Shown here: one piece after another, positions 13,958 through 35,849 of the stretch | How positions within the stretch are numbered: position 1 is the first letter of the stretch | Layout of the letters: the number at the start of each line of letters is the position of its first letter | Source: Candidatus Magasanikbacteria bacterium RIFCSPHIGHO2_01_FULL_33_34 | GTDB taxonomy: Bacteria; Patescibacteriota; Patescibacteriia; Magasanikbacterales; UBA922 | NCBI GenBank assembly: GCA_001782825.1 | Contig: MFPS01000006.1 | Span: 3,351 to 67,350 of the forward strand | Direction: 5' to 3' | Length of the DNA: 64,000 nucleotides | The notes under the pieces: model-generated | The model's input: the letters and a program-made list of their open reading frames with translations, nothing else | What the model was told of the DNA's origin: nothing | Databases searched by the model: none | Made by a program: the position numbers and the translations under genes

Positions 13958-14047
13958 GGAAGGGTGGCAGAGCGGTCGAATGCGACGGTCTTGAAAACCG
14001 TTGAGCCTGAAAGGGTTCCGTGGGTTCGAATCCCACCCCTTCCGCCA
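13958..14047 (+). tRNA. tRNA-Ser (anticodon UGA), class II, CCA encoded
   Basis: Acceptor GGAAGGG/CCCTTCC, D stem GCA/TGC, anticodon stem-loop ACGGT-CTTGAAA-ACCGT, long variable arm, T arm GTGGG-TTCGAAT-CCCAC, G73, then CCA. Confidence 0.85.
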
Positions 14048-14726: not shown

Positions 14727-14760
14727 AAATTAAATAACGAACTTTCGTTCGCTATTTTTA

Positions 14761-15369: not shown

Positions 15370-15381
15370 ATAATTTTTTTA

Positions 15382-17253: not shown

Positions 17254-17267
17254 AATATATTTTAGAC

Positions 17268-18381: not shown

Positions 18382-18382
18382 G

Positions 18383-19378
18383 CTAATATAATGTCTTACT
18401 TAATTTTAAAACTGCCTTAAATTCATCTAGTTTCATATCAGAATCAGCCATAGAACCAGACAAAACTTCAGCTACAGGTATTCTATTTTTTAATGATTTT
18501 GAAATTATATCTTGATATTGTTTGTATATAGGACTATTATACCATGCTTCCACACCTTCCATAAACATCAAATATGAGTCCTCTTGCAGATACTCAAATT
18601 TCTCTTTGACTTTTGATATTGAATCTTCAGCATTTGTACCCAAACGTCTAAAATCTTCCAATGTAAAATTAAGCATCTCATCAACTGGTCCAACACTTTG
18701 CTTTTCTACCTTTGGTGGTTTAACATCTTGTAATAATGGTTTTGTATTAAGCGGTTGCATCTCAGGTATTACTCCAGACATTTTATTATTTGTTATTATT
18801 ATACCTCTATCTACATCGAGATTTTTTGTAAATTTAGGTTTATCAAATTGAAAATTTTTATTATCACCAATCTTATTTTTATAGCCTGCTTCATTAACAA
18901 AAACATCTTTCACTGGAGTAGTGCGTGCCAATATATGTTCTCCTTCTCTTACTAATACTGGTTTTTCTTGATGAAACTCATCATCAAGCAATGATTTGTG
19001 ATCATCCTTTTCCCATCTATTTATACCTGACAATGTACTTTTATCTTTAATATTTTCAACAACATTTTGTAAACTTTTACTTACGCCATCTTTATTTCCA
19101 TAACCAGATTCTACCTTAGTAGATTTATTTTCACTTTCCTTTCTTATCTTTATGATATCATCTCTCAATTTTTGCCTTATTTCATCAGCCTTTCTTTTCA
19201 ATTCTTCCTCTTTTAACTGATTTTCTTTGTCTTCTTCTTTTTTAACTGTATTTACAACATTACTTGCACCCAAAATTTGCGTACTACTACTAGTCTTCAT
19301 TTTTTTGAATTCATCTAAAGACATGCGAACACTCATGCCATTGGCTTTTTTAACTAAAATTGTTGGTTCATTATTCAT
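18383..19378 (-). CDS. hypothetical Lys/Glu-rich protein in the T4SS-like block; preferred start ATG at 19378 (GGGGA RBS, 1 nt after the upstream stop); a longer ORF runs to 19417
   Basis: ORF with no recognised domain. The upstream stop at 19380-19382 followed by ATG at 19376-19378 indicates translational coupling. Confidence 0.5.
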   Translation of the reverse strand: MNNEPTILVKKANGMSVRMSLDEFKKMKTSSSTQILGASNVVNTVKKEEDKENQLKEEELKRKADEIRQKLRDDIIKIRKESENKSTKVESGYGNKDGVSKSLQNVVENIKDKSTLSGINRWEKDDHKSLLDDEFHQEKPVLVREGEHILARTTPVKDVFVNEAGYKNKIGDNKNFQFDKPKFTKNLDVDRGIIITNNKMSGVIPEMQPLNTKPLLQDVKPPKVEKQSVGPVDEMLNFTLEDFRRLGTNAEDSISKVKEKFEYLQEDSYLMFMEGVEAWYNSPIYKQYQDIISKSLKNRIPVAEVLSGSMADSDMKLDEFKAVLKLSKTLY

Positions 19379-19379
19379 A

Positions 19380-20516
19380 TTATTTTCCCCATTTAAAATT
19401 ACCCATACTTTCATCATAATGAACCATATCTTCTCCAGGGTAATTATTTTTATTCAAAAATTCGTCAAGATTTACAATTGCCAAAGCAATTTCAATATTC
19501 TGCAGACCATTATTACCCAATTCTGTTTGTAATAATTTTTCTAATTCTTGCCTAGCCTTAACCTTATTTTCAAATGACTGTAACCATGTCAAAAGTGAGC
19601 GAAGTGCTTCTGGTTTATTAATCCAGATTGCAAAATTAGATTTGTTTTCAATTAATCTTTCACTAAATGGAATAATCACACTTGTCTGATCTTCTTTTTC
19701 CATATCAACTTCATCCAATAAATTAAAATTATCAAAATAAAATTTTAATATATTTGCTCCAATTTCCTTTTTTGCTTTGTCAGATAATTTATCTGCAATA
19801 TTATATTTAGCATTTTCAAAATAACCCAATAAATAATCATCTATTTTAGATTCACCAACAAAAAAGGAAAATCTATCAACAAATTTTTTTGACCTCAAAG
19901 CAACATCCTTTTTTAAATTTTCATTATCCAACACAATATCATAAAATAAAGCTTTTTGTGTATCTTCAAATACTTTATATGAAGAAACATTTGCGCCATC
20001 ATCTTTTTTATTCAATAATAATCTCAAATCTGAAACTTTTAATTTTTCTCCAATATCATTAAAGGCTATTGGGTAATCAATAGACAACATTTTATTTTTA
20101 ATCTTTTTATACAAATCTTCTGCCTGATCATAATTTTTAGAAGCAAACATTTCCAACAGCTTATCATCTATATCAATAAAGGCTGATGTAGCAAAAGGCA
20201 AAGTATAACTAACAAAATCTACCAAAATTTCAGCTTTCATACCCACCAACAAATTCCAGCCGATATCCACAAATAATGGCCAAAATGTATGAGAATATTT
20301 CCTCATTATATTCTCATCAAAATTATTTTCATGAAAAAAATCATACATCGCGACAAAAGCAATTTTTGGACTTAACTTTCCTGTACTTGAACTCAAATAA
20401 TAAGAATCTCGAATTTTTTTCATTTCATCTAGAGTTACCTCATGAGGTATCAAAATATCAAGATTTTCATCAGTAATAATATTCTGTTGATTGTCTACAA
20501 CCTTGTCTTCATTCAT
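19380..20516 (-). CDS. hypothetical protein (378 aa) in the T4SS-like block
   Basis: ORF with uniform coding bias and no recognisable motifs. Its start lies 20 bp downstream of the VirB6-like gene. Confidence 0.5.
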   Translation of the reverse strand: MNEDKVVDNQQNIITDENLDILIPHEVTLDEMKKIRDSYYLSSSTGKLSPKIAFVAMYDFFHENNFDENIMRKYSHTFWPLFVDIGWNLLVGMKAEILVDFVSYTLPFATSAFIDIDDKLLEMFASKNYDQAEDLYKKIKNKMLSIDYPIAFNDIGEKLKVSDLRLLLNKKDDGANVSSYKVFEDTQKALFYDIVLDNENLKKDVALRSKKFVDRFSFFVGESKIDDYLLGYFENAKYNIADKLSDKAKKEIGANILKFYFDNFNLLDEVDMEKEDQTSVIIPFSERLIENKSNFAIWINKPEALRSLLTWLQSFENKVKARQELEKLLQTELGNNGLQNIEIALAIVNLDEFLNKNNYPGEDMVHYDESMGNFKWGK

Positions 20517-20535
20517 ATAAAATATAAACTATATT

Positions 20536-23500
20536 TTAATTATTCTTTTTTCCAGAATTAGGTGAACCTGGTTTTTCCTCTGATTTTGCTTTCAATTCTT
20601 CTACATTTATTTCTATTACCACATCATCTGAAACAATTGTTCTTTTACCAACTGTTTGACCATTTAATTTTTCATTGGCAAATTCAGCTAATTCTACTAT
20701 GCTCGCTTTTTGCACATCCTCACCCTTTATTTTAGCCACACCCAGTTGTTCAAGTCCAGTTCGCCATGCTTCAATCGCTTGCCTTCTACCTATAGTATCT
20801 TTTGCATCTAATGCATTATACCTATTGGCAAACTGTTGCATCCAGAGTGCAAGGGTAGTTTTCATTTCATCTGCTACTTGAAATTCTTTTCCATCATAAG
20901 CGACATCTGATGTTGATCCAGTTGTAAGTCCATTAAATATAGTTTTTTCCATTTGCGCTATTTTTTCAGCTGTCATTTTACTAGCAATTGCCATTAATTC
21001 TTCATAGGCTTGTTCATGTTTTAATCTAACAGCTCTACCACCCTGTAAAACACTATATGCTCTACCGTCTTTTATGCCATATCTACTAAATGAAGGTCTG
21101 GCCATCATGTTTTCTTGATATTCTCGCCATGTACTACCATCTTGATATGTACCTGTACCCAAAACTTTACCTTTACCAGCTCCAGCTTTCATATTATTGG
21201 TCATACCAAATGCACGCCTACCAAACTCATCAACACCTTCAGAAACCTGCATATATGATTCAGTTGATGTTAAACTTCTTGATGCAGAATTTAAACCTTG
21301 ACCAAGCATTCTAAACAATCTAGAATCTTTTTCTTTAAACCTTTGATGCATTTCATCTTCTACTTCTTTAAATCCTGCATCATCTTTTACATCATCCCAT
21401 TTTCTACCAGTAATAATCGCTGCAATTACTCTACCAATATTTTCTGAAGTATTGACTTTTACATCAGCAAATGAACTATCCAAATCTGCTGATAAACCTG
21501 GTATAACACCAGAATATTCTTTAGCAAAAACAGCCATATCTCTACTTAAAGATTGAGACAATGATTCTCTTGCTTTTTTATCTGCAACCGTAAATCTATC
21601 ATTTGGATCTTTTTTATCTTCTTTTTCATTTAATTTCTGAAGTTGCTTATATCTTTTTTGTATATCCCTTTCTAATTGCTCATACTCACGTTTATTATCC
21701 TCAAACTCTTGAAAAGCCTGTTTTTCTTCCCACATCCTCAATCTATCGGTTGATTTGCCTTCTATACCTCTAAAAACATCCGCCAATCTAGCCTTTTCTT
21801 TTTCATATTCAGTAATAAATTTTCTACCCCTAGTACCAGCTTTATATGATTCATACTCACCGCCCAACATAGCCACATTATCATATACACCATCTCTTTC
21901 ATAAGCTTCTGATCTTTCTTTGTCATCTATAGAGTCAACAATATATTTATCTACAACTTTTTCCTTAGTATCTGGGAAACTTTCCATAATTTTATGTACT
22001 TTCTGTTCTTTTTCTGTTACTGCTGTAGAATTTTTTGCCCAATCAATACCATACTTTTCTATCATCTCTTTATCAATTTTACTTATTTTTTCCTTTCTTA
22101 CTTTCTCAAGTATTTCATCTGCTTGGTTTGATGTTTTTATTTCACTTGTCTCTTTTTTATTTTTATTTATTTTTTCCTTTGTCTCAGCTCTTTTCATTTG
22201 CTCAGCAATTTTAGCATTTTTATCTATAACATCTAAACTTTCCCATGTACCATCACCCTCTTTATCATTCATAGCTTTCCTCAATCCACTCTCTATATCA
22301 TCCATAAGTTCTGCCATCAACTGATCAGCTTTAATTTGTCGCGCATAATCTATATAAGCTTCTTCCTGATCTGCTGATGTCATCCCTGCTTTCTTTTTAC
22401 TTACCAATTTTTTATTAGAAGCTACCATTTTATCTTCAACTTCTTTTTGTTCTAATTTTAAATAACTATGTTTAAACATGCCCTGAATTTCATCCATTCT
22501 GGCTTTTGCAGAACCCCTCTCTTCTTCTGCATACATACCTCCTAAAATTGTTGAAATCAAACGAGTACCAGAAGCTGCTTCTCTATCAATTTCTCTCTTT
22601 TTGGCTTTATACTCTTTGAGAGCCTCCTGTTTTGGTGCTGCTGCAGTAGACATACTTGACAATGAGCTTCTCATACCTGCCAAAGCTTCTTCTCTTTCCT
22701 TGTCAGTTCTAGCTGTTGTAAATGAAGCCAATGAACTTTGCAAACCTAATTCTGGTGTTTGTTCTATTTTTTCAATCATCTTACGAGCCTCAATACCCTT
22801 ACCACTTCTAACCAAATCTTGTACTTTTTTATATTTACGAATAATTTTTGGACTAACTGTTTTGTCTTTTTCCATTTTGTCAATTGCAGACGCTATTCTT
22901 TCTTCTTCATAATTTTCTTTTTCCATTTTTGCACGCATTATACCTTCTGATTCCAATCCTTCAATTATACTATTTGCTGTCATAAGATCATCATTATTAA
23001 CAGCCTTTTCTAATTCTTTGTACTTAGTATAATTTATATCTTTCTTTGGTTCTAATTCTTGAACAGCAGAAATAGCAACTTCTTTTGACTCTTCTTTATC
23101 TAAAGTAGCACCTATATCTAACAAAGCTTTATCTGCTTCATCCTTATCTGCATTAAAAATACTTTTTTGTAAATTTTCTCTTAATTTCAATTTACCAGCA
23201 TCTTTTGGTAAACTTATTTTTGATAACGCACTATTAGCTTCTGCCCAATCACCACTTTCTATTGCTTTTACTACCTTGTCATACTCATCACTCTCTCTAG
23301 CTTTAATTGCATTACGAATAGCTTCGCGTATAGGAGCAGTATCTTCTGCCTCAACACCATGGTCACGTTCTAATTCATCCAAACTTTTTTCAGCTACACT
23401 AAATTTACCCGCTTTTACAAGATCAACTACATTAGTTACGGCTTCTCTTTTGCTATCTTGTGTAGCATCTCCAATAATATCCAAAATTTGTTTTTTATCA

Positions 23501-25449
23501 TCCACTTCAGTTAAATCTGTATTACCTATTACTCTCTTCAAATCAGCAATAACTCCAATTTGCTCATCTGATTCAGCTGCTTTAATTTTCATATCAAGTT
23601 CTCCCATTTCAATTCTAGCTTTTTCATCTCCAGAAATTGCACCAGCAATTTCTTGATGAACGGACATAATAGGACTTTTCTTTTTAATAACTTCTACTGC
23701 TTTTGTTATTTCTTCTCCATCACCACTATCAATAGCCTTCTGAAGTTGTCCATAATCAAATCTATCATCCATTTCTTTTTCAATATCTTTCCACGCGCCC
23801 TCATAATCAGTATAATTACCAGCTGTAATTGCTTTTTGCAAATTATCAAAAAGTTCATTGTTTCCACCAGCATCTTTTAATGCTGTACTAATATCAATTC
23901 CTACCATTGCTTTAATTTTTTCGATATGATTCTTTGAATCTGTTTCCATATCTTCTCTATAAAAAGCTTTTGTAGCAGAATCCTTTAATCTTTGTTTTTT
24001 TGCTGATTTTCTTTGCTCTGCTAATTCTGTAGATGCTAATTGTCGTCCTAATTTTTCATCAGATGCACCCCAAAAACCAGCCCCTTGAGTTGCTGAAATT
24101 TCTTTTCCTTTAGCCTCTTTCAATTCATCAAGTCTAGACAACGCATTCCTTCGTCTTTGTGGTATATTCATAAATTGGCCCAATCTACTTTTTGGATCCA
24201 TTCTTTTTTCATGTAATTTATCTGATATACCAGTCTTACTATACGCCAATCTGGCTGTACCCTTAGCATAACCACCAACACCCTTTAATGCACGATCACC
24301 CTTTTCTAAACCTTTATCAACCAACCACCTACCAGCAGCATAACCAGATGCAATGGTAGCAGCTTTCTTTGTGAAATCCATTGCCTTACTTGTAAGACCA
24401 CCACCCACTACACCCATTCTGCCCACCATTTGAATGCCAACAATAAAAAAACCAAGCGCAATAAAATAACTTGCCAAACTTTCCCATGTACTAGCTGCGC
24501 TAGCCGATATACTAGGATCACCACTTGTACTTCCAGCTTGTGTTAACTTACTCACCTGAAGATTAATATCACTAGCAATATTAGCTGATTGCAGAGATGC
24601 AAAAGCTAACCAAGTAAAAAATACCATGACAGGACCAACCATCGCATAATTAAAAAAATTTTTCCAAAATTCACTAGAATAACCCTTTCCAAAAGGAAAA
24701 GCAGACAAAACAAAGGCCAATGGAGACAAAATCATCAACATCCACAATACTATCATTCTACCAATCATCACTATCAAATAGGCCCCCATCGTCAACATTA
24801 CCAGTAATGCCATTATAAATGAAACTACCGCCCCTATAAATAAATCAAATCTCAAACTACTGTTACTAATATCTCTATTACGTGTCATTTCAAGCAAAGT
24901 ATCAAACCTAAAAATATTTATCAAATTACCACCTGATTGCCCCTTGAAAGCCACCAAAAAAGTATCCATCAATATCTGCGCAAAATCAAGCACCAACTGC
25001 AAAATAAGTTTACTAAAATTAATGAATATGGCAGCGAATATCAATTTGACCAATGATTTTTTCCACTCATATTGTTCTACACCCAAAACTGTGCCAATCG
25101 CTATCACCATAAGAGCCACAATGAAAAACATATTGGCAAAATCCCTGATCATCACCCACCCAATAGTAACCGGTGGCGCATTCATAAAATCATTGTAAGC
25201 TGCGAGCTCAATAAAATATTCCCAACTCCACAGTGTAACATCCATACACAATCGAGCCAACCAAAATAATATTTGAGATACTACAGATATTAATCCATTT
25301 ATAATATCATTCAAAAATTCACCAGCATGAACAGAAACAAATGTTACAGACAAACCAACAGACACAAACAATACGAAAAATAAAGCCATCGTTTTTTGAT
25401 TTCTCTTTATTTTCCAAAAATTCTTAAATTTTAAGGCTATATTTTTCAT
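20536..25449 (-). CDS. VirB6/TrbL-like polytopic membrane protein with a hydrophilic charged/coiled-coil C-terminal extension of about 1250 aa
   Basis: The first 350 aa or so carry at least 7 predicted TM helices (e.g. IGWVMIRDFANMFFIVALMVIAIGTVL, IGAVVSFIMALLVMLTMGAYLIVMIGRMIVLWMLMILSPLAFVLSAF). The remainder is E/K/D/A-rich with no TM segments. The giant gene stop lies 10 bp upstream. Confidence 0.6.
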   Translation of the reverse strand: MKNIALKFKNFWKIKRNQKTMALFFVLFVSVGLSVTFVSVHAGEFLNDIINGLISVVSQILFWLARLCMDVTLWSWEYFIELAAYNDFMNAPPVTIGWVMIRDFANMFFIVALMVIAIGTVLGVEQYEWKKSLVKLIFAAIFINFSKLILQLVLDFAQILMDTFLVAFKGQSGGNLINIFRFDTLLEMTRNRDISNSSLRFDLFIGAVVSFIMALLVMLTMGAYLIVMIGRMIVLWMLMILSPLAFVLSAFPFGKGYSSEFWKNFFNYAMVGPVMVFFTWLAFASLQSANIASDINLQVSKLTQAGSTSGDPSISASAASTWESLASYFIALGFFIVGIQMVGRMGVVGGGLTSKAMDFTKKAATIASGYAAGRWLVDKGLEKGDRALKGVGGYAKGTARLAYSKTGISDKLHEKRMDPKSRLGQFMNIPQRRRNALSRLDELKEAKGKEISATQGAGFWGASDEKLGRQLASTELAEQRKSAKKQRLKDSATKAFYREDMETDSKNHIEKIKAMVGIDISTALKDAGGNNELFDNLQKAITAGNYTDYEGAWKDIEKEMDDRFDYGQLQKAIDSGDGEEITKAVEVIKKKSPIMSVHQEIAGAISGDEKARIEMGELDMKIKAAESDEQIGVIADLKRVIGNTDLTEVDDKKQILDIIGDATQDSKREAVTNVVDLVKAGKFSVAEKSLDELERDHGVEAEDTAPIREAIRNAIKARESDEYDKVVKAIESGDWAEANSALSKISLPKDAGKLKLRENLQKSIFNADKDEADKALLDIGATLDKEESKEVAISAVQELEPKKDINYTKYKELEKAVNNDDLMTANSIIEGLESEGIMRAKMEKENYEEERIASAIDKMEKDKTVSPKIIRKYKKVQDLVRSGKGIEARKMIEKIEQTPELGLQSSLASFTTARTDKEREEALAGMRSSLSSMSTAAAPKQEALKEYKAKKREIDREAASGTRLISTILGGMYAEEERGSAKARMDEIQGMFKHSYLKLEQKEVEDKMVASNKKLVSKKKAGMTSADQEEAYIDYARQIKADQLMAELMDDIESGLRKAMNDKEGDGTWESLDVIDKNAKIAEQMKRAETKEKINKNKKETSEIKTSNQADEILEKVRKEKISKIDKEMIEKYGIDWAKNSTAVTEKEQKVHKIMESFPDTKEKVVDKYIVDSIDDKERSEAYERDGVYDNVAMLGGEYESYKAGTRGRKFITEYEKEKARLADVFRGIEGKSTDRLRMWEEKQAFQEFEDNKREYEQLERDIQKRYKQLQKLNEKEDKKDPNDRFTVADKKARESLSQSLSRDMAVFAKEYSGVIPGLSADLDSSFADVKVNTSENIGRVIAAIITGRKWDDVKDDAGFKEVEDEMHQRFKEKDSRLFRMLGQGLNSASRSLTSTESYMQVSEGVDEFGRRAFGMTNNMKAGAGKGKVLGTGTYQDGSTWREYQENMMARPSFSRYGIKDGRAYSVLQGGRAVRLKHEQAYEELMAIASKMTAEKIAQMEKTIFNGLTTGSTSDVAYDGKEFQVADEMKTTLALWMQQFANRYNALDAKDTIGRRQAIEAWRTGLEQLGVAKIKGEDVQKASIVELAEFANEKLNGQTVGKRTIVSDDVVIEINVEELKAKSEEKPGSPNSGKKNN

Positions 25450-25458: not shown

Positions 25459-28400
25459 CTAAAATTCTTCTGAAGGTATAATGATTATATTACCTCTATA
25501 AGTTGTCCACGGAGTTGGTACTACACCTAATATTGGTGGTACACTACCAACATCTCTCCAAGCACACTCAGTTGCCACATCACCTGAATAACAAAATGGT
25601 CCGCCAGCTTCAGGATTTGCAGGATCGTCCGGACACCAACCATTACAATAACCCCAATTATCCAATACTTGTACACGTGGTTTAAACTGACACAAAGTAT
25701 AATCTACATCATTGGAGCTCAAATTTATCTGATCTGCAATATCTACTGACAAATTATAATTTGTAACTTCATTCAATATGATACTTTGTACATCAGAATC
25801 CAATGAACCAAATGTAATATGCGCATCAATCATAGTAGCTGTACATCTATAAGCATGTTCAAATTCAAATGGTTCAATCGTACAAGCCCGAGGTGCATTA
25901 CCAAATCTTGGCATAGCATATGTTTCAAGATCTGTTCCACCCAAAGCAAGTAACTCTTGTGTTGACATACAATCTGGATTGGTAAGCAATGGATCATCAC
26001 CAGCTTCAATAATAGACAATGGTTCAACCACATTGAAATTTTCTGGACAATCACTATCTTCTTCACAAGTAATACTAGAAGGTATATGTTTACCCTGAAA
26101 ATTCATTTTACATACAGGAACAACTTCATCTCCATTTCCACCATTTGCACAAAATGGTTTACTATTTTTGTATAAGCCTAATTTATTTTCATTGGTTATT
26201 GTACTACCATCCCCCCAATCTACAGAAACTTTCCTAATAGGCATACGATTGTCATCAGCATGCGCAAAAAATTTGACATTGGCAGTATAAGTATCAACTG
26301 AAGCTATATCAGAAGCTGCTGACCTCTCAACACTACTTATTTGACCATCATTATTATAATCTTTTAGCTCTCCAGTCGCCAAACCAACGGAAAAACTGTT
26401 ATATTCAGCCACTGTACAATCAGCCCCTTCATTCACATCATCATCTTCAGAACAAAATACTGGATTCAATGAATAAACTGCTGGTTGAGTAAGATATTCT
26501 GTAAATGAATACTCTGGAATAGGCTCACAAAATTCACAAGGCTGATGTGCTGGACGCCTTATAATAGTTTGTGCTCCATAAATTGTATTACTACGATCTA
26601 GATCAGCTAGAGGTAAAACAGCGTCAACATATTGTAATCCAGGATTTGCTCCTGCTTCATCCAAATTAACTACCCTAAATTGTTTCACAAATAACTCAAA
26701 TAATGCATCATGTGCATACCATGGCATAAGATAATAAACTGGATCATACACTTGCATACGTCCAATAGTTGATACTACACGACTGCCATTATATTCCTGA
26801 CCAACAGTTTGTCTAAATGCAAAAGTATTTCTATAAATAGTTGACTCATACGGCGCGAAAGGACAACTTCTTATATATAAATTAAGTGGTACAGATCTAA
26901 CTAAAGCATCGGCATATGACAGATTGCAAGAATATGGTATACCATCTACAAATGGATCTTGAAAACTGAAGTTCAATAACGTAGTATTATCAAGGTCACT
27001 AAGAAAATCAGCCGAAAGTCCCAATGATCCATAAGGTGCAAGTATATTATTTCTACTTACCAAAGGATATGATGATGTATCATCTGTACCAAAAGATTCT
27101 TGATCAATCGTTGCATCACGAGCAAAAGGATGAGCAAATGGCGTACCATCAATATTTCTAGCCAAAGACCAAACTCTATTTGTCCAAGCTTTATTGATAG
27201 TTCTAGCTGTACCAAAAGCTGATCTGTCATATACCTGTACTATTTCTCTACATTGAGTAGCTAAATCAGCAAATACAGCAAAACCTATACCTGATCCAAG
27301 TGATGCATTTTCATTATGAGTTAAAACATTATCAGCTGTATAACCATTACACCATTTTGTGGTATACCCAAGAAATTCTCCATTCTCTCCAAAATTAACT
27401 GATACTGCCCACCATGGATTATAATGTGCATTCTCTTCATTATCATTACTATAACCACCTCCAACATAACCCCTTTGGCAATCTGTTTGGAATGGATCAT
27501 TGACTGCAGATTGTGGTACAAAAGGCTCTGGTTGTCCTTCTGATAATATACCATTCATAAACATTGGTGCAACAGTCCTATAACCAAAAGGATCACTGGA
27601 ATCATACTTTAAGGCACCAGAAGTTTGATTTGCAAAAAACACTAAAATATATTTCTTTACTACATCTGGCTCATCCGGATAAAACAAAGAAGACTGATCC
27701 GAATTATTACGATCAAGAACATATCTCCACATCAATAAATGATTTTGTGAAAAGGATACAGGATCAGTTTTGCTAAATGTCATTGGATCACCATAATAAA
27801 TTGAAGTTTTATTTCTCAAAGAGAAATTTACTATATAATAGCCATAACCACTATTATTAAAATAGTCACTATCTGTATAATAATCACTATCTTTTCTAAT
27901 AACAACACCAGAAAACGGTACAATTGAACCATTAATATTCCCATCATTACTAGCTAAAGCTTTGATTGGCAAACGCAATACTTCATTATCCCATCTTTCT
28001 GTCCAATTGGACATATTTGGATCACCTAAATCAAGAATTGTCCTAGGAACAGCCCCGCGCAAAGTTCCTTTATAAACAGTTGGGATAAAGTAAAAATCAT
28101 TTACAGAATATTCATTAATAAAATTATCAGCTGTATTAAAATTATAAAGCCCACCATACTCACTAGTATCATTTACAACACCATCGTCATCAGTATCCAA
28201 ATCAACTGGATGAGTACGCCTATCAAAACCACCATTTTGAATTTCATATATATCAACACCTGGATTACCCCCAACCCATGGTGCAAATCGCCAAGGTGCC
28301 GTAGTACCATTTAAATCAAGGTCTTTATTTGGGTTATATTCCACTCGCAATGGTATAGCATTATTACCTATTCTATTCCAAGCATATGAAGTAAATAATT

Positions 28401-31400
28401 TTATAATAAAAGCCCCAAGATTATCCATTTCCATTCTACGTACTGTCTTCCAAGGTATGCCGGCATAAAATTGACCAGGGTTAGGAAAAGTACCTGTTAT
28501 TCCACTATCATCTGGAGCCATCGGTCTCATATAAAAACCTAATACTGAATCTATGTCATTATCATTTAAATTTTCTTCTCGATAATTACACATTAATTTA
28601 TTAAAAGTTGAAAAGGTTACTGTTCCGCCACCAGAATATCCAAAAGGTGTTTGCATACTTAGTAAAGTAATCCTATTACTAGTACTTACTGGACCAAAAC
28701 CATAACCATAATTATAATTTTGACTTGGGAATGTCTGACAAGTAAAGTGATGCAAAGATCTTCCATTAACAGGCACTACTGGATCTGGAAAATAACTATA
28801 AAGCACTTGACTACTAAAATGAGAAGTGGTTTCATTTAATTCATCATCATTAAAATCATTATAATCATATCCAACAGATGGATCAAGAATATAATCCGCA
28901 TCAAACAAACCACCACCTGATACACCAGCGCAATATAACTCACCACTGGCAAAATTTGGATTAGCATCTAATTGTGGATAATAACCAGCTTCAATATGCA
29001 AACTATTTGGGTCAATATTGGTAGCTGATGTTTGAATCGGTAACCATGTCAAACAAGCATATTCTTGATCCGCCTCATATCTAGCTTTACCATTAATTGG
29101 TCTACTAAAATCAGGTTCCAGACAAAAACCCTTTACTCCCAATCTTGTTTGTACCTGTCTCAATTTACTACATTCACCAGCAGATACAATTTCACCTCCT
29201 TCACGAACAATACAATCTAGATTTGTTTGACAAGGTTGACCATCTTTTTCACCAGTAGTACAAATACCAATTGGAATTGAAGGATTTACATATGATGTAG
29301 AAGTTGTAATAGGATAATAATCTACAAAATTACCATAATCATATTTGTTATATTCACAAGAACAATCTATTGAACCTTGACAAAGATTAGCCTCGCTAAA
29401 AAAGTTATTATAGATAGAATATTCTACTCTTGATTTTCCATTCAATTGACTACCTGCGCTTGTATTGCGTTTAATTCTACTATTGGCAGTATACGCAGCA
29501 TCCTCTTCATCAACTGGTTCTGAAGCTATATTCAAATATGGGAACGGACTTCCTTCTTCAGAAAAAATCTTACAACTTGAATCATTCAATCCATCTCTAA
29601 TTGCATTATGAATAATCAATCTCTCTTCATCCTCGTCTACAGCACCAGAAAGATTTATGTTTGGAAATGATGATCCATCAATTTTATTAACACACTTGCC
29701 CACAAAACACCTACCAGCTAAACCTGGACCACATGGATTACCATCTGTATCCCCAAATTCTGAATCACAATTGTTTGGTAACTCTCCTATATTTGGTAAT
29801 AATGCACCCAAATATTGATTTTCTGGTTCAGTTGAAAAAGTAAAATAACCAAATGTAAGTATTTGATGCTTGTTTAATAAAGAATATCCAGAATATTCAA
29901 AACCATACCATGAAATATCCCTACCTGTATATCTTTCTTCATCCAAAAATGTTTCCCCATATTGTGGTTGCACAAATGTCAAACACTCATCATCCCGCCC
30001 ACCAATTTTTAATTTTTCACAAGCTTTATACTCCGAACACAAAACTTGCTTTTCGCCTTTTTCATCTCTACTAATTAATTTATTACTACAAGTTAACCAC
30101 TCAGAACAAGCCCTATCTCTGTTAACCTTGAGTAGAAAATTGGTATCATTTGCCACTCCAGGATCAGTAGAGATTTGTGGATTTACAAAACCATATTTTG
30201 GATTTGTTTCATCACTAGCTTCATAAGTTAATGAAGCATTATAAAATTTGTTTGGTTGATCAGTCTTGTCAAACAAAACACAACCTTCTTTTAAGCTAAC
30301 CTGACCGTTACATTCACTTGTCCTCTCTGTAAGCTTATCATCAAATATCCTATAATATGGTTGACCATTTGGATTAGCATTTGATGTGTCTACCGTATCA
30401 ACTAATTCTGTACATAAATTATATTTATTTTGGCAAGAACCAACAAAACCATTATACCTATCAGAATCATTGGACCAAATACTATATATTTCATCTTTGA
30501 GATAATCATCATAACAAGGAATAGACCCAATATCTGAACAATCATTGTCCGCACAATCACTATTACTTCGACAATAATTAGACGGTTGAGATTGGCATCT
30601 ACCAAAACCTTCTATATACCATCCATCAAAACTAGCTGTATTTTCTTTGTAAGTACAAATTGAGTGACCTGTCTCTACTGGATCTCTAAAATAATAAGTA
30701 TTTGGACCGGTAGTATATTCACCACAACCAATTTTGTCTTGAGTACACAAAATTTCTCCATATCTTTCTGGATTGTCCTTTATATAAATATCACTATATT
30801 CATAACTAAGTGTAGTGGTACTTGGCATTATTTGATCTTGTAGTCCCATCAAAGTACAACCAACATCTCCTTCTGGACAATGATATTCTGTTCTATTGGT
30901 CAAAAATATTGGCGCGCCAGATTCTGGTGGAATATAAACACTAGACAAATCAATACTTATATTAATTTCACCAAAATCAAATGCCAACAAATCATTCAAA
31001 TCTCTATATTCATCATCATTAAAATCATTAGCTGTGCCATTATCATCAATTGGTAAATTCATAACTGGTATATAACAACTAGGTTCACCCTGTGGCACAA
31101 AACAACTTCCCGTAGTACCAAAATAATTTATAGAACATTCCACTCCAGATTCGCCATCATCATGAGAACAAACCAAATTATATATCTTTGGCAATCTAGC
31201 ATCTTCACCAGTCAACGTATTGTTGGTATCAAACAAAGGCTGACATCCCACTGCTTCTTCTCTACAAAGAGAAGCAAAACCTGTCAAATAATAAGTATTA
31301 CTTCTTTCATCTGTATATTCACTACAACCAAGCGCAAAACCAGGCAATAGCCCTGCTGGATTTTCACCGCTAGCAAAACAAGTTGATGGAGCATTGGCCA

Positions 31401-34400
31401 TTATAGATTCACCTTCTTCAATAGTCCCATTGCCATTCACATCATATCCTATTTCTTGTTGCCAAGAATCTTTGATCAAATATATACTATCTTCAATTTG
31501 TGATAATTGGATATTGTCCAAGAAATAAGGCGCAGCCGTTCCAACATTGTGGAAACTCAATACCACTGGAGACAATCCATCTCCAGTAAATTGTACTGGA
31601 CCAAGCCTATATTCTCTCCAATTATTACCAATTGAAATTGAGCTCAAAGCATCAGCGTTCAAAACCTCATGAGTAAATATTCCATAAGTTTCTGAGGCTG
31701 GATCAGCTAAATTATAATTATAAGCGCCATCAGAATTAGTATCCTGCATAAATCGGATTGAAATATCTTGAGGTGCTCCTCTGGCCCAGAAACTTAATTC
31801 AAACCAACCATTTGATTGTAGAGATACAAGTTCTTCTGTGGTTCCCAATTCAATCTCTCTAATCAAATATTCTTGACCAGCGCTATTACTGATTCGCAAA
31901 GAACTCTGGCCTCTTTGTAATGATTCAGATGAAATTGAAATGTTGCTTCCACTTGGCGCTAAAAGAAACCAACCATCTGTAGTCGTTGCAGATTCAAAAC
32001 CATCAGCAATAATATTTAATCTCAAGTTATTTCCGGTATTTCCAGTATAAGCGCGACATTCATTGGCCACTGCTGGACATCTAGATGATTCACTAGATAG
32101 TGATTGATAAACACAAGTATTACCATCAACCTGTCCACCGGCGTAACATCTATTACATTCTGAAACTCCATCACCATTTGAGTCCCCCCAAACACCATTA
32201 CCTTGATTAGCACAAGTAGTTCCATCTGCAATATCATTATCAACAAAAAGTCGTGGTTCAGTTTTTCTGAGTCTCCTGCACTGATCTGAAATAATAACCG
32301 TGTCCCCCATCATTCTATAATATTCATTACCAGCATTATCATAAAACTGCCTACAATCTGCTGCTGCAGAATTAGGATCAAATACATTAATAATTGCCAA
32401 AGCATAATTTGTTCTATTACATACTTCAAAATTATTTTGAATTGCCTCGCGAGTATTGTCTGAATAAGCAGGTGAACCAGGAGCAAAATCAACTGCAGAT
32501 GAACCATCTGGAACACCATTGTTATCTGAATCCCAATCAAAACCTGCTAAACCAGCTACATAAGCAGATTCACCCGCATCCATTTGTTTAAGCCTATGAT
32601 TTCTCAATACAAAACCTTCACTATGAGAGCCTTCCCATGAGAAAAATACTTTCTCTGGCACTGTATTAGGCTTTTCACAAAATCTAATATAATTGTAATA
32701 TTCTAATCTTTCTCCACCCTCAGATGATTCTTCTACATTGGTAAATTCATCACAACCAACATGTTGAGCAGAACATACCGTACCGAGTGACGGCACAAAA
32801 TGCAATGGAAATTCTTCATCTTCAAAACTTGATTCTCTTTGTTTAAATGTCTCATAACCAGCACACTCAGCCGGACAACCATTTTGCTCCTTGACCACAG
32901 CTGAAACAGTACTGCCAGTCCGTGCTGATGTATACAAACTACAACCAGCTTCTAGAGGCGCACAAACTTGCGCAAACTTTCCACATTCACTTGGTACATT
33001 CATATTCAAAATTTCAGACTCAGTCTGTGGCCAATTAATAATTGTTTCTGAACCCGCTCCAGTATTGGTATCATAACAACCCAAATAATCAGGTGCTACT
33101 TTGAGATGAATAATATCTGATGTATTTCTGATATATTCATTGTTTTTTAATGTAAACAATCCTGTATTAAAATTCCTTTGTACTCCATAAAATACTGTAC
33201 AACCTTCTGACGATGCTGAACAAGTTTCTACATTTCTATTGAAGTATATTGAACCATTTCTACCAACTGTTTTGAGACTACCCACACTATTGATATCAGC
33301 ATATGTTATCCATTCATTAGATAATTTTTCTGTTGAGTAACCCTGACAACCAACAGACTCTGGGGTGCACTGCGCAAAATCTATTGTTCTAGCTAAATAT
33401 GATGCTTTGTCACCTGATGATGTGTTTGTATATGATGTACAAGTACTATATTGAGCCGGACACTCTTGTCCATCTAACTGCCAAATATTTTTTTCCTTTG
33501 TACAATATCCCCAAGCAATACAAGTTCCATCAGCACTTTCTGATATACAAGTTTGCAAATCCATACATTCCTCTGCTCTAAATGGAGTAGAATTATCAAC
33601 TAAATTTGGCCCAAATCCTTCTGTACCACATCTAGATTGTGGCACTTTAATAATCCAGTTTGGATTAATCAAATGACATGCTTCGTGATTTGCATCAGGT
33701 TCACCATTTTCATTGCAATCATCAAAACCATTAACAACTCTATCTAATGTCCAAGGTTTATCAGGATTAGACTTCAAAGCGGCCAATTCAAAACCGATTG
33801 GTAAAATTAAGGCTTTTCTTAATTTTTGGATATTAGAATAACAATAAGCTTTGATATAGCAATCACGAGCTTCACTTGAATTTAATGCATGTGTTGGTGG
33901 AATCAATTGCCAATTGCCATGCAATAAATTGGCATCAATCGCTTCTCTAATTGTCAAAAATACTCCATCATTACTGCTACCTCTATTAATGGCTTGTTCA
34001 AAACCTGAATCAATCACTCTATTTGAGACCAAATCACCCACAATATCATAATTATCAACCTGATTTATAGACGGCGCAGTAATAAAATTAAAGGCTCTTT
34101 GGGCAGCTTTTTTGTTGTCTTGCAAAGTTGATGCAAAAAATGAAGCAATCCCACCTGAAGCACCCCCACCACCAACTTTGTCAGGATCAGGTGTATCTGG
34201 AAGTAATCCAGTCATTATTTTCTTTAACAATTGTTGACTAAGAGTATTAATAAAAATATTAGCGGCCATCAATGGTAAACTTCTAAGTTCAGAGCCATAA
34301 ATTCCGGCCATTTGTGTAGCATTCAATTTTTGCTGTTCAGCGGCTGACAAAGACTCTGCTTCTTTTCTGATTTGAGAAGCAGGAGTGAGAATCTTGCCTG

Positions 34401-35139
34401 AAATTGGACTGACAACATCTTTGAATCCTTGATTGGCTATTCGCTCTATATCAGCGGCTGCTCCTGCCCTACCTACCGCATTATCAATTTGCGCAATTGA
34501 TTCCATGGCTACACCAAAACCAGTTTCCTTAAAACTAAAACTTCCAGAAAAAACTTCTGAGGCAAAACTACTTCCACCTTCTCCATATTTTTCTTCAAGA
34601 GCAGCGATACTAAAATTGTCTTTCAATTGTTGCCATTCACATTTTGGCTGTGGGCCAATTGGAACTCCATCAGGACCTAATTTTGGATATAAATTACTCA
34701 ATCCTAATTTCAAATTGATATTTACTTGTGGACTTGGAATTTTACATAAATTTAATCCGAAAGGTTCTCCCAAAGAACCAACCAACTCACCCGCAACTGA
34801 ACCAGTCACATCACTCCAATATTGACCGGCAGATGTATCAAATGCCAATGGACTATTGCCAAAATCTCCAGTAGCTATAGCAGTCGCTGTATCAAAGGCT
34901 ACTTTGCGAACCATAAATGAAAGACTATTCATAACCGCACCCATTGCAGCCCCAGTTAACTGATTAAAAATAGTATCTTTAGCTTCTTTAACTTTCAATA
35001 TTCCATATAACCCCGGATCACTGACAACCCCACCAACTTGGGCTTTAACAGGATTTGCAAAAAGAATCATCCCAAAAACATCCATTACAAAATATGTTGC
35101 TACCAAGAATATTATAAATGATGATTTTCTTTTTTGCAT
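25459..35139 (-). CDS. giant secreted Cys/Asn/Gly/Asp/Tyr-rich surface protein (3226 aa); putative adhesin-like component
   Basis: One uninterrupted 9.68-kb ORF. The N-terminal signal peptide is MQKRKSSFIIFLVATYFVMDVFGMILFANPVKA. There are no further TM segments, and Cys residues are numerous (spaced CxxC/CxnC throughout). Confidence 0.8.
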   Translation of the reverse strand: MQKRKSSFIIFLVATYFVMDVFGMILFANPVKAQVGGVVSDPGLYGILKVKEAKDTIFNQLTGAAMGAVMNSLSFMVRKVAFDTATAIATGDFGNSPLAFDTSAGQYWSDVTGSVAGELVGSLGEPFGLNLCKIPSPQVNINLKLGLSNLYPKLGPDGVPIGPQPKCEWQQLKDNFSIAALEEKYGEGGSSFASEVFSGSFSFKETGFGVAMESIAQIDNAVGRAGAAADIERIANQGFKDVVSPISGKILTPASQIRKEAESLSAAEQQKLNATQMAGIYGSELRSLPLMAANIFINTLSQQLLKKIMTGLLPDTPDPDKVGGGGASGGIASFFASTLQDNKKAAQRAFNFITAPSINQVDNYDIVGDLVSNRVIDSGFEQAINRGSSNDGVFLTIREAIDANLLHGNWQLIPPTHALNSSEARDCYIKAYCYSNIQKLRKALILPIGFELAALKSNPDKPWTLDRVVNGFDDCNENGEPDANHEACHLINPNWIIKVPQSRCGTEGFGPNLVDNSTPFRAEECMDLQTCISESADGTCIAWGYCTKEKNIWQLDGQECPAQYSTCTSYTNTSSGDKASYLARTIDFAQCTPESVGCQGYSTEKLSNEWITYADINSVGSLKTVGRNGSIYFNRNVETCSASSEGCTVFYGVQRNFNTGLFTLKNNEYIRNTSDIIHLKVAPDYLGCYDTNTGAGSETIINWPQTESEILNMNVPSECGKFAQVCAPLEAGCSLYTSARTGSTVSAVVKEQNGCPAECAGYETFKQRESSFEDEEFPLHFVPSLGTVCSAQHVGCDEFTNVEESSEGGERLEYYNYIRFCEKPNTVPEKVFFSWEGSHSEGFVLRNHRLKQMDAGESAYVAGLAGFDWDSDNNGVPDGSSAVDFAPGSPAYSDNTREAIQNNFEVCNRTNYALAIINVFDPNSAAADCRQFYDNAGNEYYRMMGDTVIISDQCRRLRKTEPRLFVDNDIADGTTCANQGNGVWGDSNGDGVSECNRCYAGGQVDGNTCVYQSLSSESSRCPAVANECRAYTGNTGNNLRLNIIADGFESATTTDGWFLLAPSGSNISISSESLQRGQSSLRISNSAGQEYLIREIELGTTEELVSLQSNGWFELSFWARGAPQDISIRFMQDTNSDGAYNYNLADPASETYGIFTHEVLNADALSSISIGNNWREYRLGPVQFTGDGLSPVVLSFHNVGTAAPYFLDNIQLSQIEDSIYLIKDSWQQEIGYDVNGNGTIEEGESIMANAPSTCFASGENPAGLLPGFALGCSEYTDERSNTYYLTGFASLCREEAVGCQPLFDTNNTLTGEDARLPKIYNLVCSHDDGESGVECSINYFGTTGSCFVPQGEPSCYIPVMNLPIDDNGTANDFNDDEYRDLNDLLAFDFGEINISIDLSSVYIPPESGAPIFLTNRTEYHCPEGDVGCTLMGLQDQIMPSTTTLSYEYSDIYIKDNPERYGEILCTQDKIGCGEYTTGPNTYYFRDPVETGHSICTYKENTASFDGWYIEGFGRCQSQPSNYCRSNSDCADNDCSDIGSIPCYDDYLKDEIYSIWSNDSDRYNGFVGSCQNKYNLCTELVDTVDTSNANPNGQPYYRIFDDKLTERTSECNGQVSLKEGCVLFDKTDQPNKFYNASLTYEASDETNPKYGFVNPQISTDPGVANDTNFLLKVNRDRACSEWLTCSNKLISRDEKGEKQVLCSEYKACEKLKIGGRDDECLTFVQPQYGETFLDEERYTGRDISWYGFEYSGYSLLNKHQILTFGYFTFSTEPENQYLGALLPNIGELPNNCDSEFGDTDGNPCGPGLAGRCFVGKCVNKIDGSSFPNINLSGAVDEDEERLIIHNAIRDGLNDSSCKIFSEEGSPFPYLNIASEPVDEEDAAYTANSRIKRNTSAGSQLNGKSRVEYSIYNNFFSEANLCQGSIDCSCEYNKYDYGNFVDYYPITTSTSYVNPSIPIGICTTGEKDGQPCQTNLDCIVREGGEIVSAGECSKLRQVQTRLGVKGFCLEPDFSRPINGKARYEADQEYACLTWLPIQTSATNIDPNSLHIEAGYYPQLDANPNFASGELYCAGVSGGGLFDADYILDPSVGYDYNDFNDDELNETTSHFSSQVLYSYFPDPVVPVNGRSLHHFTCQTFPSQNYNYGYGFGPVSTSNRITLLSMQTPFGYSGGGTVTFSTFNKLMCNYREENLNDNDIDSVLGFYMRPMAPDDSGITGTFPNPGQFYAGIPWKTVRRMEMDNLGAFIIKLFTSYAWNRIGNNAIPLRVEYNPNKDLDLNGTTAPWRFAPWVGGNPGVDIYEIQNGGFDRRTHPVDLDTDDDGVVNDTSEYGGLYNFNTADNFINEYSVNDFYFIPTVYKGTLRGAVPRTILDLGDPNMSNWTERWDNEVLRLPIKALASNDGNINGSIVPFSGVVIRKDSDYYTDSDYFNNSGYGYYIVNFSLRNKTSIYYGDPMTFSKTDPVSFSQNHLLMWRYVLDRNNSDQSSLFYPDEPDVVKKYILVFFANQTSGALKYDSSDPFGYRTVAPMFMNGILSEGQPEPFVPQSAVNDPFQTDCQRGYVGGGYSNDNEENAHYNPWWAVSVNFGENGEFLGYTTKWCNGYTADNVLTHNENASLGSGIGFAVFADLATQCREIVQVYDRSAFGTARTINKAWTNRVWSLARNIDGTPFAHPFARDATIDQESFGTDDTSSYPLVSRNNILAPYGSLGLSADFLSDLDNTTLLNFSFQDPFVDGIPYSCNLSYADALVRSVPLNLYIRSCPFAPYESTIYRNTFAFRQTVGQEYNGSRVVSTIGRMQVYDPVYYLMPWYAHDALFELFVKQFRVVNLDEAGANPGLQYVDAVLPLADLDRSNTIYGAQTIIRRPAHQPCEFCEPIPEYSFTEYLTQPAVYSLNPVFCSEDDDVNEGADCTVAEYNSFSVGLATGELKDYNNDGQISSVERSAASDIASVDTYTANVKFFAHADDNRMPIRKVSVDWGDGSTITNENKLGLYKNSKPFCANGGNGDEVVPVCKMNFQGKHIPSSITCEEDSDCPENFNVVEPLSIIEAGDDPLLTNPDCMSTQELLALGGTDLETYAMPRFGNAPRACTIEPFEFEHAYRCTATMIDAHITFGSLDSDVQSIILNEVTNYNLSVDIADQINLSSNDVDYTLCQFKPRVQVLDNWGYCNGWCPDDPANPEAGGPFCYSGDVATECAWRDVGSVPPILGVVPTPWTTYRGNIIIIPSEEF

Positions 35140-35195: not shown

Positions 35196-35849
35196 TTATA
35201 AATTTATATCTTTGACCAATTTTAACAATTCTTCATCTGTTACATTTTTTAATTGTTCTTCAGTTATTTTGCCAGTTGATAATAATATCTGTCTCAACAA
35301 TTCTGGACTATTCATCAATGTTTCTAATTCAATACTCAATTGATCAGGGTCTGGTAGTTGTTCATCAGGGATCTGTTCTGACAAAGAAACTGATTCAGCC
35401 AACAAATCCAAAAAATCTGCAGCCCCACTTTCTACCGAAACAGGAGATTCAACTGCAATTTGTTCTTCCGGAGTATTGGTATCCAACAATATTTCACAAT
35501 CAGTCCCCTCAGCGCACAATGGATTAGTTCCATTTTCAATTTCAATGTTGTCATCAATCCCATCTGAATCAGTATCTGGTAAATAGGGACTAGTATTATA
35601 AAACTCCAGCTCTTCAAAATCAGTCAAACTATCATTGTCGGTATCCATCTGCTGTAACCTAGTTGAATCATCAATAAAAGCTTGTGAACTAAGATAATTA
35701 ATTGGCCTAATTACAAATGGATTATAAATAGTATTTCTCATTTGCAATGCGCCCATACTCAATGTCAAAATTCCGAATACCATTAACAAGACAAAACCTA
35801 CTTTTTGCCCAGAGCTAAGTTTTCTTGTTTGGTAATTTTCAGATTCCAT
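35196..35849 (-). CDS. acidic bitopic membrane protein with calcium-binding DxDxDGxxD (thrombospondin-type-3 / dockerin-like) motifs
   Basis: TM segment VGFVLLMVFGILTLSMGALQM, then DTDNDSLTDFEE and DTDSDGIDDNIE motifs, and a strongly acidic C-terminal half. Confidence 0.6.
   Translation of the reverse strand: MESENYQTRKLSSGQKVGFVLLMVFGILTLSMGALQMRNTIYNPFVIRPINYLSSQAFIDDSTRLQQMDTDNDSLTDFEELEFYNTSPYLPDTDSDGIDDNIEIENGTNPLCAEGTDCEILLDTNTPEEQIAVESPVSVESGAADFLDLLAESVSLSEQIPDEQLPDPDQLSIELETLMNSPELLRQILLSTGKITEEQLKNVTDEELLKLVKDINL

Follow-up and report, generated by a model that had tools for sequence, protein, structure and literature searches.

The window analyzed here, 64,000 nucleotides (nt) of contig MFPS01000006.1 (positions 3,351 to 67,350) from Candidatus Magasanikbacteria bacterium RIFCSPHIGHO2_01_FULL_33_34, an ultra-small bacterium of groundwater that depends on a host (class ABY1), contains a single 9.68-kb gene whose product of 3226 amino acids (aa), hereafter the giant protein, begins with a signal peptide, carries a large set of conserved cysteines and a domain resembling carbohydrate-binding modules (CBMs), and is encoded directly before a VirB6-like gene in a type IV secretion system (T4SS) cluster. 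We propose that the giant protein may act as a Sec-exported, disulfide-rigidified adhesin for host glycans that cooperates with the T4SS of Patescibacteria, an assignment that we consider about as probable as all other accounts together (roughly 0.5). In our best reading, it would be functionally comparable to TraN or PrgB, the surface proteins of better-studied T4SSs, while being unrelated to either in sequence.

A giant cysteine-rich protein and its family

The gene occupies 25459..35139 on the minus strand, starts with ATG and, judged by the six-frame list of open reading frames (ORFs) and by its translation, contains no internal stop; because the GC content of the window is 29-36%, an open frame of 9.68 kb is beyond chance. 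It takes up 15.1% of the window and 17% of the coding bases; an earlier, sequence-only reading of this DNA had put its share of the coding capacity at about 15%. The protein contains 100 cysteines (3.10%, versus 0.36% across 14 other proteins of the window), that is, 53% of the 190 cysteines in the window's 44 ORFs, and the remaining proteins of the T4SS cluster have none or one apiece. Asparagine, glycine, aspartate and tyrosine are enriched, as the same reading had it, and so are serine and proline, with lysine, glutamate, isoleucine and leucine depleted. Along its length, the protein can be divided as follows:

35041..35139, minus strand: signal peptide, aa 1-33, with a basic n-region (QKRK), a hydrophobic core at aa 8-27 and the site VKA↓Q
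34051..35040, minus strand: N-terminal domain, aa 34 to about 363, with predicted long helices and an invariant cysteine pair (C132, C167); always N-terminal in the family
32038..34050, minus strand: best-conserved core and cysteine-rich region I, aa 364-1034, with the signature CYSNIQKLRKA-ILP-GFE-AA and 33 cysteines, many in C-x5/6-C hairpins
31450..32037, minus strand: CBM-like beta-sandwich of the CBM4/9/22 type, aa 1035-1230
28870..31449, minus strand: cysteine-rich region II, aa 1231-2090, with 42 cysteines, nearly all conserved; collinear in nearly all 87 homologs
27490..28869, minus strand: hypervariable region, aa 2091-2550, with 2 unconserved cysteines; length and sequence vary among homologs
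25459..27489, minus strand: C-terminal region, aa 2551-3226 plus stop codon, moderately conserved, with no LPXTG motif and no transmembrane (TM) segment

A TM scan identifies aa 6-29 as the sole TM-like segment of the protein, with VKA↓Q directly after it. The N-terminal hydrophobic core is present in 87 of 87 family members, and in 71 of them a small-x-small site, typically A-x-A↓Q, follows the core. Given this family-wide signal peptide, Sec export and cleavage of the giant protein are predicted, and the claim of a single long ORF with a Sec signal, made before from the letters of the DNA, is borne out. An LPXTG motif is absent from the last 45 residues of all 87 members, as is a C-terminal TM segment. 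In one homolog (P0054), aa 27-68 of the signal-peptide region show a weak, sub-threshold match to DUF4141 (E 0.0049), probably an artefact of the hydrophobic segment.

How widespread is this protein? A word-indexed search yielded a set of 87 relatives of 2400-3800 aa, the named ones among them belonging to Candidatus Magasanikbacteria, Parcubacteria or the 'Patescibacteria group'. These homologs are collinear with the giant protein and align from residue 1-10 onward, with essentially all of them covering aa 1 to about 2080, only 6-9 of the 87 covering aa 2100-2550, and about half to two thirds covering aa 2550-3226. When a single conserved peptide pattern was run against one genome from each GTDB species, relatives turned up in at least 536 species genomes, almost all of them Magasanikbacteria or other Patescibacteria. 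An exhaustive hidden Markov model (HMM) search with a profile of the N-terminal domain returned 2255 representatives of clusters formed at 50% identity, of which 1069 reach E≤1e-30; a second word-indexed search, with the N-terminal profile, gave two fragments only. Among the 150 matches listed from the HMM search, the N-terminal domain always begins at about residue 25-70 and spans about 25-460; the proteins mostly measure 2500-3700 aa, with shorter matches probably representing fragments.

Many of the best-matching genomes (including L004, L005, L011 and L013) are titled 'uncultured Gammaproteobacteria bacterium ... binchicken'. They share the arrangement of ksgA, a small-protein gene and the giant gene with named Magasanikbacteria metagenome-assembled genomes (MAGs), and the titles look like placeholders or wrong taxonomy.

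A literature search on giant T4SS proteins of Patescibacteria and on cysteine-rich proteins of Magasanikbacteria found no description of the family, which is already in public databases, solely as 'hypothetical protein' and without a family model. What is new is a sequence-unrelated variant that unites two known kinds of protein, the giant cysteine-rich surface protein of the candidate phyla radiation and the T4SS-linked adhesin, in a lineage from which the latter had been reported absent.

When the homologs are aligned over their full length with MAFFT, 89 of the 100 cysteines prove to be conserved in at least 80% of them, though overall identity is 24-47%, and the number of cysteines is even in 84% of family members. 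Near-invariance at this level of identity, in conjunction with mostly even counts, argues for structural disulfides, and the same two features predict about 50 disulfide bonds in the giant protein. The closest distinct homolog is 47% identical in protein, and synonymous sites are thus saturated. The absence of internal stops, the collinear homologs and the conserved cysteines identify a genuine, strongly constrained gene rather than a pseudogene, and its product is disulfide-capable; on both points the sequence-only reading was right.

Domain architecture and conservation gradient

Searches of Pfam, NCBIfam and PHROGs with the whole giant protein and with six segments of it gave no meaningful match at permissive E-values, and a sequence search of the PDB with the protein and two family profiles gave none either, the best hits being coiled-coil noise (E 0.05-0.5). 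The earlier statement that the protein has no recognizable family is therefore true for sequence libraries; it does not extend to fold, by which one domain is recognizable, nor to the existence of a family, which is very large and unnamed.

The recognizable domain, aa 1035-1230, has the beta-jelly-roll sandwich fold of CBM4/9/16/22. Pfam family PF02018 (CBM_4_9) has no hit in the giant protein itself even at E≤5 and matches 6 of 16 diverse homologs at E≤0.01 (best E 1.2e-9); in three homologs scanned singly, it scores 26-39 bits against a cut-off of 25.9, over a region that maps to aa 1043-1177 of the giant protein. The aromatic residues W1057, W1174 and Y1177 are invariant or near-invariant and may belong to the binding site or to the core. 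The classical place of CBM4/9/22 modules is on glycoside hydrolases, and the fold also occurs in Cry and Vip toxins and in phage tailspikes. Compared with CBM families 4, 9, 16 and 22, the module of the giant protein makes up about 6% of the whole and is embedded between cysteine-rich regions and, in contrast to the usual placement of CBM_4_9 on a glycoside hydrolase, its host protein looks non-enzymatic.

Region I is the most highly conserved part of the giant protein (cysteine conservation 0.84-1.0), and region II has weak profile similarity to it. An AlphaFold2 model of aa 35-1230, based on 27 sequences, has a mean predicted local distance difference test score (pLDDT) of 62, with long helices in aa 35 to about 360 at pLDDT 30-60 and good values for aa 364-510 and about 785-1225 (65-90 in aa 364-510 and about 785-1034). 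In a second model, of aa 2085-3226, mean pLDDT is 52; the hypervariable region is of mixed confidence, aa 2629-2883 lie mostly below 50 and the residues thereafter at 50-78, and a Foldseek search with this low-confidence model found no fold match better than E 0.8. Conserved motifs of the C-terminal region are NKAWTNRVW, FFA-ADDN-MPIR-V-VDWGDG, DNWGWCNG and a terminal Y-x-G-x-I-I-V-I-P strand. The motif V-VDWGDG near aa 2985 raised the suspicion of a PKD domain, for which there is neither a Pfam hit nor a PKD-like fold in the low-confidence second model; since that model is poor and no fold match was obtained, we regard a PKD-like reading as unsupported.

There are no direct or tandem DNA repeats within the giant gene, and profile-profile self-comparison gives weak matches only (P about 1e-3, probability ≤25%). 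The cysteine-hairpin spacing C-x5-C or C-x6-C (often C-x6-C-x2-[YF]), on the other hand, occurs 20 times versus 6.4 ± 2.4 times in block shuffles, and 1 of 5000 shuffles reached 20. The lack of long repeats and the recurring short hairpin together suggest a chain of dissimilar small modules, each locked by disulfides, and not a fibre built from tandem repeats. The impression of a non-repetitive protein, gained at first sight of the translation, was thus essentially correct, with the hairpin spacing as the exception. A giant toxin or adhesin of the RHS/YD-repeat, Ig-like or another repeat type was rejected on the basis of no Pfam repeat family, no DNA repeats and self-comparison at ≤25%. Some 3000 residues with about 50 conserved disulfides and no structural relative besides the CBM represent uncharted fold space.

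Conservation declines along the protein. In three orthologous comparison loci (L001, L002 and L003, in this order, with identities to the proteins of the window), VirB4 is 84%, 69% and 72% identical. The corresponding values for the giant protein are 45%, 35% and 28% over aa 421-1034, and 38%, 29% and 29% over aa 1251-2090, where the alignments to L002 and L003 are partial. The hypervariable segment, aa 2091-2550, is 27% identical in L001 and has no hit in L002 or L003, and aa 2551-3226 are 30% identical in L001 and 22% in L002, with none in L003. Across the hypervariable region, alignment occupancy is 0.18-0.5 and conservation 0.07-0.19, versus about 0.5 elsewhere. As for its origin in a diversity-generating retroelement, the giant gene was rejected as a target: no direct repeat of at least 40 nt touches it in the 64-kb window, and there is no reverse transcriptase among the ORFs scanned.

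The type IV secretion locus and its conservation

Between 35849 and 14761, the minus strand carries nine consecutive genes with gaps of at most 56 nt or with overlaps. Besides the giant gene, they and the element behind them are:

35196..35849, minus strand: 217-aa upstream partner, anchored by an N-terminal TM segment (aa 14-38) and carrying two calcium-binding repeats of the TSP3-like type D-x-D-x-D; its C-terminal half is very acidic
20536..25449, minus strand: extended VirB6-like protein of 1637 aa, with a polytopic TM domain (aa about 19-349) followed by a K/E-rich hydrophilic tail of about 1250 aa
19380-20516, minus strand: p378
18383-19417, minus strand: p344
17953-18381, minus strand: PrgI/VirB3 (Pfam PrgI, 7.2e-10)
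17268-17978, minus strand: TrsD/TraC-like protein (weak TraC_F_IV match, 0.024)
15382-17253, minus strand: VirB4 (TraG P-loop, 4.8e-29)
14761-15369, minus strand: p202, TM-anchored
14757..14732: terminator-like hairpin after the operon, from a terminator scan

The gene of the 217-aa protein ends 56 nt before the giant ORF, on the same strand, and it is conserved; the giant gene is therefore the second gene of the block and not, as the sequence-only reading had assumed, the head of the operon. The link to the T4SS cluster that had been drawn at the same time stands, as the VirB6-like gene starts 9 nt beyond the giant stop codon and is followed by the genes of PrgI and VirB4. From p378 to p202 (14761..20516), neighboring genes overlap or lie no more than 19 nt apart. 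Gaps of 9-56 nt on either side of the giant gene, with no intervening terminator, suggest that it is co-transcribed with the T4SS genes; a promoter scan was uninformative in this AT-rich DNA. The 217-aa protein weakly matches TSP3_bac (E 0.044) and, with E 1.6e-4, the TSP3-repeat region of NCBIfam MtsD.

The VirB6-like protein matches the TrbL/VirB6 family of Pfam at E 0.006 (16.7 bits, below the cut-off of 25.9) and has several TM segments in aa 19-349, and its ortholog in L001 carries a weak TrbL_3 match. Identity of the TM part is 49%, 30% and 31% in L001, L002 and L003, and the tail is without a detectable homolog; as the tail is dissimilar even where the TM part is 49% identical, it must evolve extremely fast or get replaced. 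Extended VirB6 proteins are a known, unexplained variant (PMC12857230). Orthologs of the TrsD/TraC-like protein in L001-L003 are 50-63% identical and have a hit to PF26593 (TraC-like). The cluster thus contains the VirB4, VirB3/PrgI and TrsD/TraC-like proteins expected of an MPF-FATA-like T4SS of Patescibacteria. Pfam scans detected no VirB2-like pilin, VirB8 or VirB1 in the operon.

The role of the T4SS of the saccharibacterium Southlakia epibionticum has been called 'completely unknown' (PMC11665869). A survey of 2,474 Patescibacteria virB4 genes places the system next to the monoderm MPF-FATA class, found no PrgB-like adhesin in Patescibacteria and does not mention the giant protein (PMC12102498). 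For class ABY1, the same survey reports comF, recG and radA in the neighborhood of the T4SS (PMC12102498); in the window, a ComF-like gene lies behind the operon (14058-14726).

Much of this arrangement is kept in relatives. In 75 of 83 loci, the gene of the 217-aa protein directly precedes the giant gene (median gap between high-scoring segment pairs, 99 nt); it is found in every gene-annotated homolog locus and is tied to the giant gene more tightly than any T4SS gene; its product could be the membrane dock of the giant protein. The order ksgA, small protein, giant protein, zero to four small genes, VirB6-like protein, one or two unknown genes, PrgI, TraC-like protein and VirB4 recurs in L001, L002, L003 and L088, and L087 keeps it from ksgA to PrgI, where the locus ends; L003, L087 and L088 harbor the most divergent members of the family. 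Among 44 further loci, each with at least 3 kb of downstream sequence, 23 encode a VirB6-like TM domain within 3.8 kb downstream.

The ksgA gene itself, which encodes the 16S rRNA dimethyltransferase (36006-36866, minus strand, in the window; also noted in L001-L003 and L085-L088), immediately precedes the small-protein/giant pair in 66 of 83 loci, including those of the most distant relatives. In the latter, the genes beyond ksgA differ; the adjacency of this housekeeping gene to the cluster is very stable. Locus L084 represents a special case: its coordinates 20686-25377 and 26883-29405 encode a 1563-aa protein with a weak transglutaminase-core hit and a second large protein (>1747 aa) with a CBM_4_9 hit. 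Given that such large proteins accompany the giant protein there in place of VirB6, this position may be occupied by arrays of large surface proteins in some Magasanikbacteria.

Several other features of the window were recorded along the way. Three tRNA genes lie downstream of the T4SS operon and near it, at 10964-11050, 11492-11576 and 13958-14044 (plus strand), and direct repeat D3 is explained by two of these genes, through their 3' halves. At 6868-6918 and 52360-52410 (plus strand) there is a direct repeat of 51 nt with 90% identity, one copy lying 85 nt upstream of clpP (7003-7602) and the other upstream of the groES/groEL region (groEL, 53111-54742). It holds the palindrome TGATGTC-N6-GACATCA, belongs to no Rfam family at the gathering threshold and may be a shared heat-shock operator or leader. 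An ORF of 911 aa at 46184-48919 (plus strand) has no Pfam match at E≤0.001 and an ordinary cysteine content of 0.44%.

Host-glycan adhesion and alternative explanations

TraN, the mating-pair stabilisation protein of F-like T4SSs, resides in the outer membrane of diderms and measures about 600-1050 aa. It is Sec-exported, has many conserved, disulfide-forming cysteines and contains a variable part that is thought to set partner specificity; exposed at the surface, it binds the envelope of the partner cell and is not transported by the T4SS. The giant protein shares with TraN its encoding in a T4SS cluster, predicted Sec export, conserved cysteines and a variable part, and differs from it in its 3226 aa, its monoderm setting, about 100 cysteines, the CBM and the lack of a membrane anchor. 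Membership in the TraN family was rejected, with no hit in Pfam (E≤5) or NCBIfam (E≤1), so that any resemblance would be functional and architectural. PrgB is a large, cysteine-poor LPXTG surface adhesin of MPF-FATA conjugation, encoded in the same operon as its secretion system. What the giant protein has in common with PrgB systems is the monoderm MPF-FATA-like T4SS with PrgI, TrsD-like protein and VirB4 (PMC12102498). An adhesin of the PrgB type was likewise rejected: LPXTG occurs in 0 of 87 members, and Pfam and NCBIfam scans of the giant protein revealed no adhesin domain.

We propose the following model. The giant gene would be transcribed together with the T4SS genes, and its product would be exported by Sec and cleaved after VKA. 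Oxidation outside the cell to about 50 disulfides would then render the long polypeptide rigid and protease-resistant. As there is no membrane or sortase anchor, the conserved helical N-terminal domain probably holds the protein at the cell, and we speculate that it does so through the membrane-anchored acidic 217-aa protein, the extended VirB6-like protein, or both. The proximal two thirds (aa 34-2090) could form a stalk that carries the CBM4/9/22-type module, whereas the conservation gradient suggests that the hypervariable region and the C-terminal domain are the distal, fast-evolving end, recognizing the envelope of a particular host. Binding to surface glycans of the host would tether both cells and position the T4SS channel, as TraN and PrgB do. 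An attachment role, considered probable in the sequence-only reading, fits the CBM4/9/22-like domain and the gradient; a structural fibre, which that reading named as the other option, is without direct support, considering the lack of long repeats and the low-confidence models.

Two systems from the same superphylum provide context. In the saccharibacterium Southlakia epibionticum, the one species accessible to genetics, a T4SS cluster is essential for epibiotic growth, and the surface proteins SEML1_0890, SEML1_0891 and SEML1_0315 are essential, contain polysaccharide-binding domains and have been proposed to target host glycans (PMC10633639). Like the giant protein as we interpret it, these are Patescibacteria surface proteins tied to glycans, in an organism whose T4SS is essential; unlike it, by their description, they are VCBS, FN3 and dockerin proteins from another class and are not reported inside the T4SS cluster. 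For Candidatus Peribacter riflensis, large cysteine-rich extracellular proteins with a proposed role in attachment were reported in 2016 (PMC4736985). They resemble the giant protein in their signal peptides, high cysteine content, superphylum and type of aquifer, at a mean length of 1655 aa, but form a 14-gene cluster, contain about 7% cysteine, show FG-GAP or Myxococcus-repeat similarities and have no reported T4SS linkage (PMC4736985). Compared by description, the giant protein is the product of a single gene, at 3226 aa and 3.1% cysteine, with a CBM and beside a T4SS.

Several observations weigh against a host-glycan adhesin that works with the T4SS. The proposed function is deduced from sequence and models, the recognized fold (the CBM) covers about 6% of the protein, and CBM folds occur in enzymes and toxins too. 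The N-terminal domain and most of the C-terminal third are modeled at pLDDT 30-60 and about 90% of the protein is without a fold, which means that a catalytic or channel-forming domain could be hidden there. Anchoring via the 217-aa protein or VirB6 is speculative. As for the locus, 21 of the 44 further loci have no VirB6 within the available 3.6-5.8 kb; in L086, an insertion (kinase, transposase, SerRS and M23 peptidase) shifts VirB6 to a distance of 9 kb from the giant gene, and L084 has no VirB6 inside 10 kb downstream of it, other large genes being found there. With the order kept in distant relatives and L086 and L084 as exceptions, we consider the T4SS linkage ancient and frequent, not obligatory. 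Furthermore, synteny with the giant gene extends to the housekeeping genes ksgA, prfA and sua5; adjacency alone is therefore no proof of coupling and may reflect ancestral gene order.

Could the giant protein then be a general envelope or surface protein, such as an adhesin, coat or S-layer-like protein, that functions independently of the T4SS and owes its position to inherited gene order? The equal synteny of ksgA, prfA and sua5 upstream, the lost or interrupted VirB6 adjacency in some genomes, the fact that no T4SS gene is as tight and universal a partner as the 217-aa protein (75 of 83 loci), and the Peribacteria precedent of large cysteine-rich extracellular proteins lacking T4SS linkage (PMC4736985) all speak for it. 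Nevertheless, the T4SS genes persist in the same order and on the same strand where the giant protein has fallen to about 27% identity over about 20% of its length and the genes beyond ksgA differ, and the 9-nt gap with no terminator points to co-transcription in the window, so that we judge this alternative unlikely, if still to be taken seriously. We are more doubtful about a structural part of the T4SS, that is, an extracellular stalk, sheath or conduit that would carry the VirB6/VirB4 channel across the cell wall to the host and stand in for the VirB2 pilus or outer-membrane core missing from this monoderm system. The 9-nt gap to the VirB6-like gene and the linkage kept in the deepest-branching relatives would be expected of such a part, as would the similar identities to L001 of the proximal two thirds (45%) and the VirB6 TM domain (49%), the lack of a VirB2-like pilin, VirB8 or VirB1 homolog in Pfam scans of the operon, and a rigid, disulfide-rich architecture; a 2026 preprint, moreover, describes tubular structures at a Patescibacteria-host interface (10.64898/2026.06.21.733656). 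However, we saw no evidence of oligomerization, no fibre-type repeats and no pore-like or TM segment beyond the signal peptide, some genomes place the gene 9 kb or more than 10 kb from the T4SS, and one would look for a hypervariable region and a CBM in a receptor-binding protein sooner than in the subunit of a conduit.

A secreted enzyme or toxin that acts on the host envelope, with the CBM targeting a polysaccharide and a catalytic or membrane-active domain residing in the regions for which there is no model, appears improbable. The company that CBM4/9/22 folds keep in glycoside hydrolases, Cry and Vip toxins and phage tailspikes, the 90% of the protein with no assigned fold, and the absence of a detectable VirB1-type hydrolase from the operon are compatible with it, but neither the giant protein nor 16 diverse homologs match a hydrolase, peptidase or toxin in Pfam, NCBIfam, PHROGs or the PDB sequences, a hypervariable region is unexpected in a catalytic core, and no small immunity-like gene is consistently adjacent in L001-L003. 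An annotation artefact, a decaying pseudogene or a chance ORF, finally, is refuted by the conservation data, and we give it next to no weight. The one observation in its favor is a shorter NCBI entry for this gene (P0001, from a Magasanikbacteria MAG of the Rifle aquifer), which has 2888 aa and starts to align at residue 339; as it begins in the middle of a domain, it is most likely due to a contig end. Against an artefact stand the uninterrupted 9.68-kb frame in DNA of 33-36% GC, homologs that align from residue 1-10, near-invariant cysteines and more than 1000 clusters that share the N-terminal domain.

Returning to an adhesin that cooperates with the T4SS, one may take the proposal a step further, into territory that we regard as rather a long shot: the giant protein, a calcium-binding 217-aa partner and the extended VirB6 might together constitute a hitherto unseen extracellular module of a monoderm T4SS, a disulfide-rigidified stalk that recognizes the host glycan and forms or guides the conduit for the exchange of macromolecules between episymbiont and host. 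If this were true, a new T4SS architecture, defined in part by the giant protein, would exist in the ABY1/Magasanikbacteria branch of Patescibacteria.

What is the relevance of such a protein for these bacteria? Patescibacteria account for much of bacterial diversity and apparently live on other cells. With relatives in at least 536 species-level genomes and a usual place between a small membrane protein and VirB6, the giant family is a concrete candidate for the component of host recognition that has been missing from one major class of Patescibacteria, and the CBM domain, the hypervariable region and the conserved N-terminal domain offer testable handles on how these cells may recognize their hosts.

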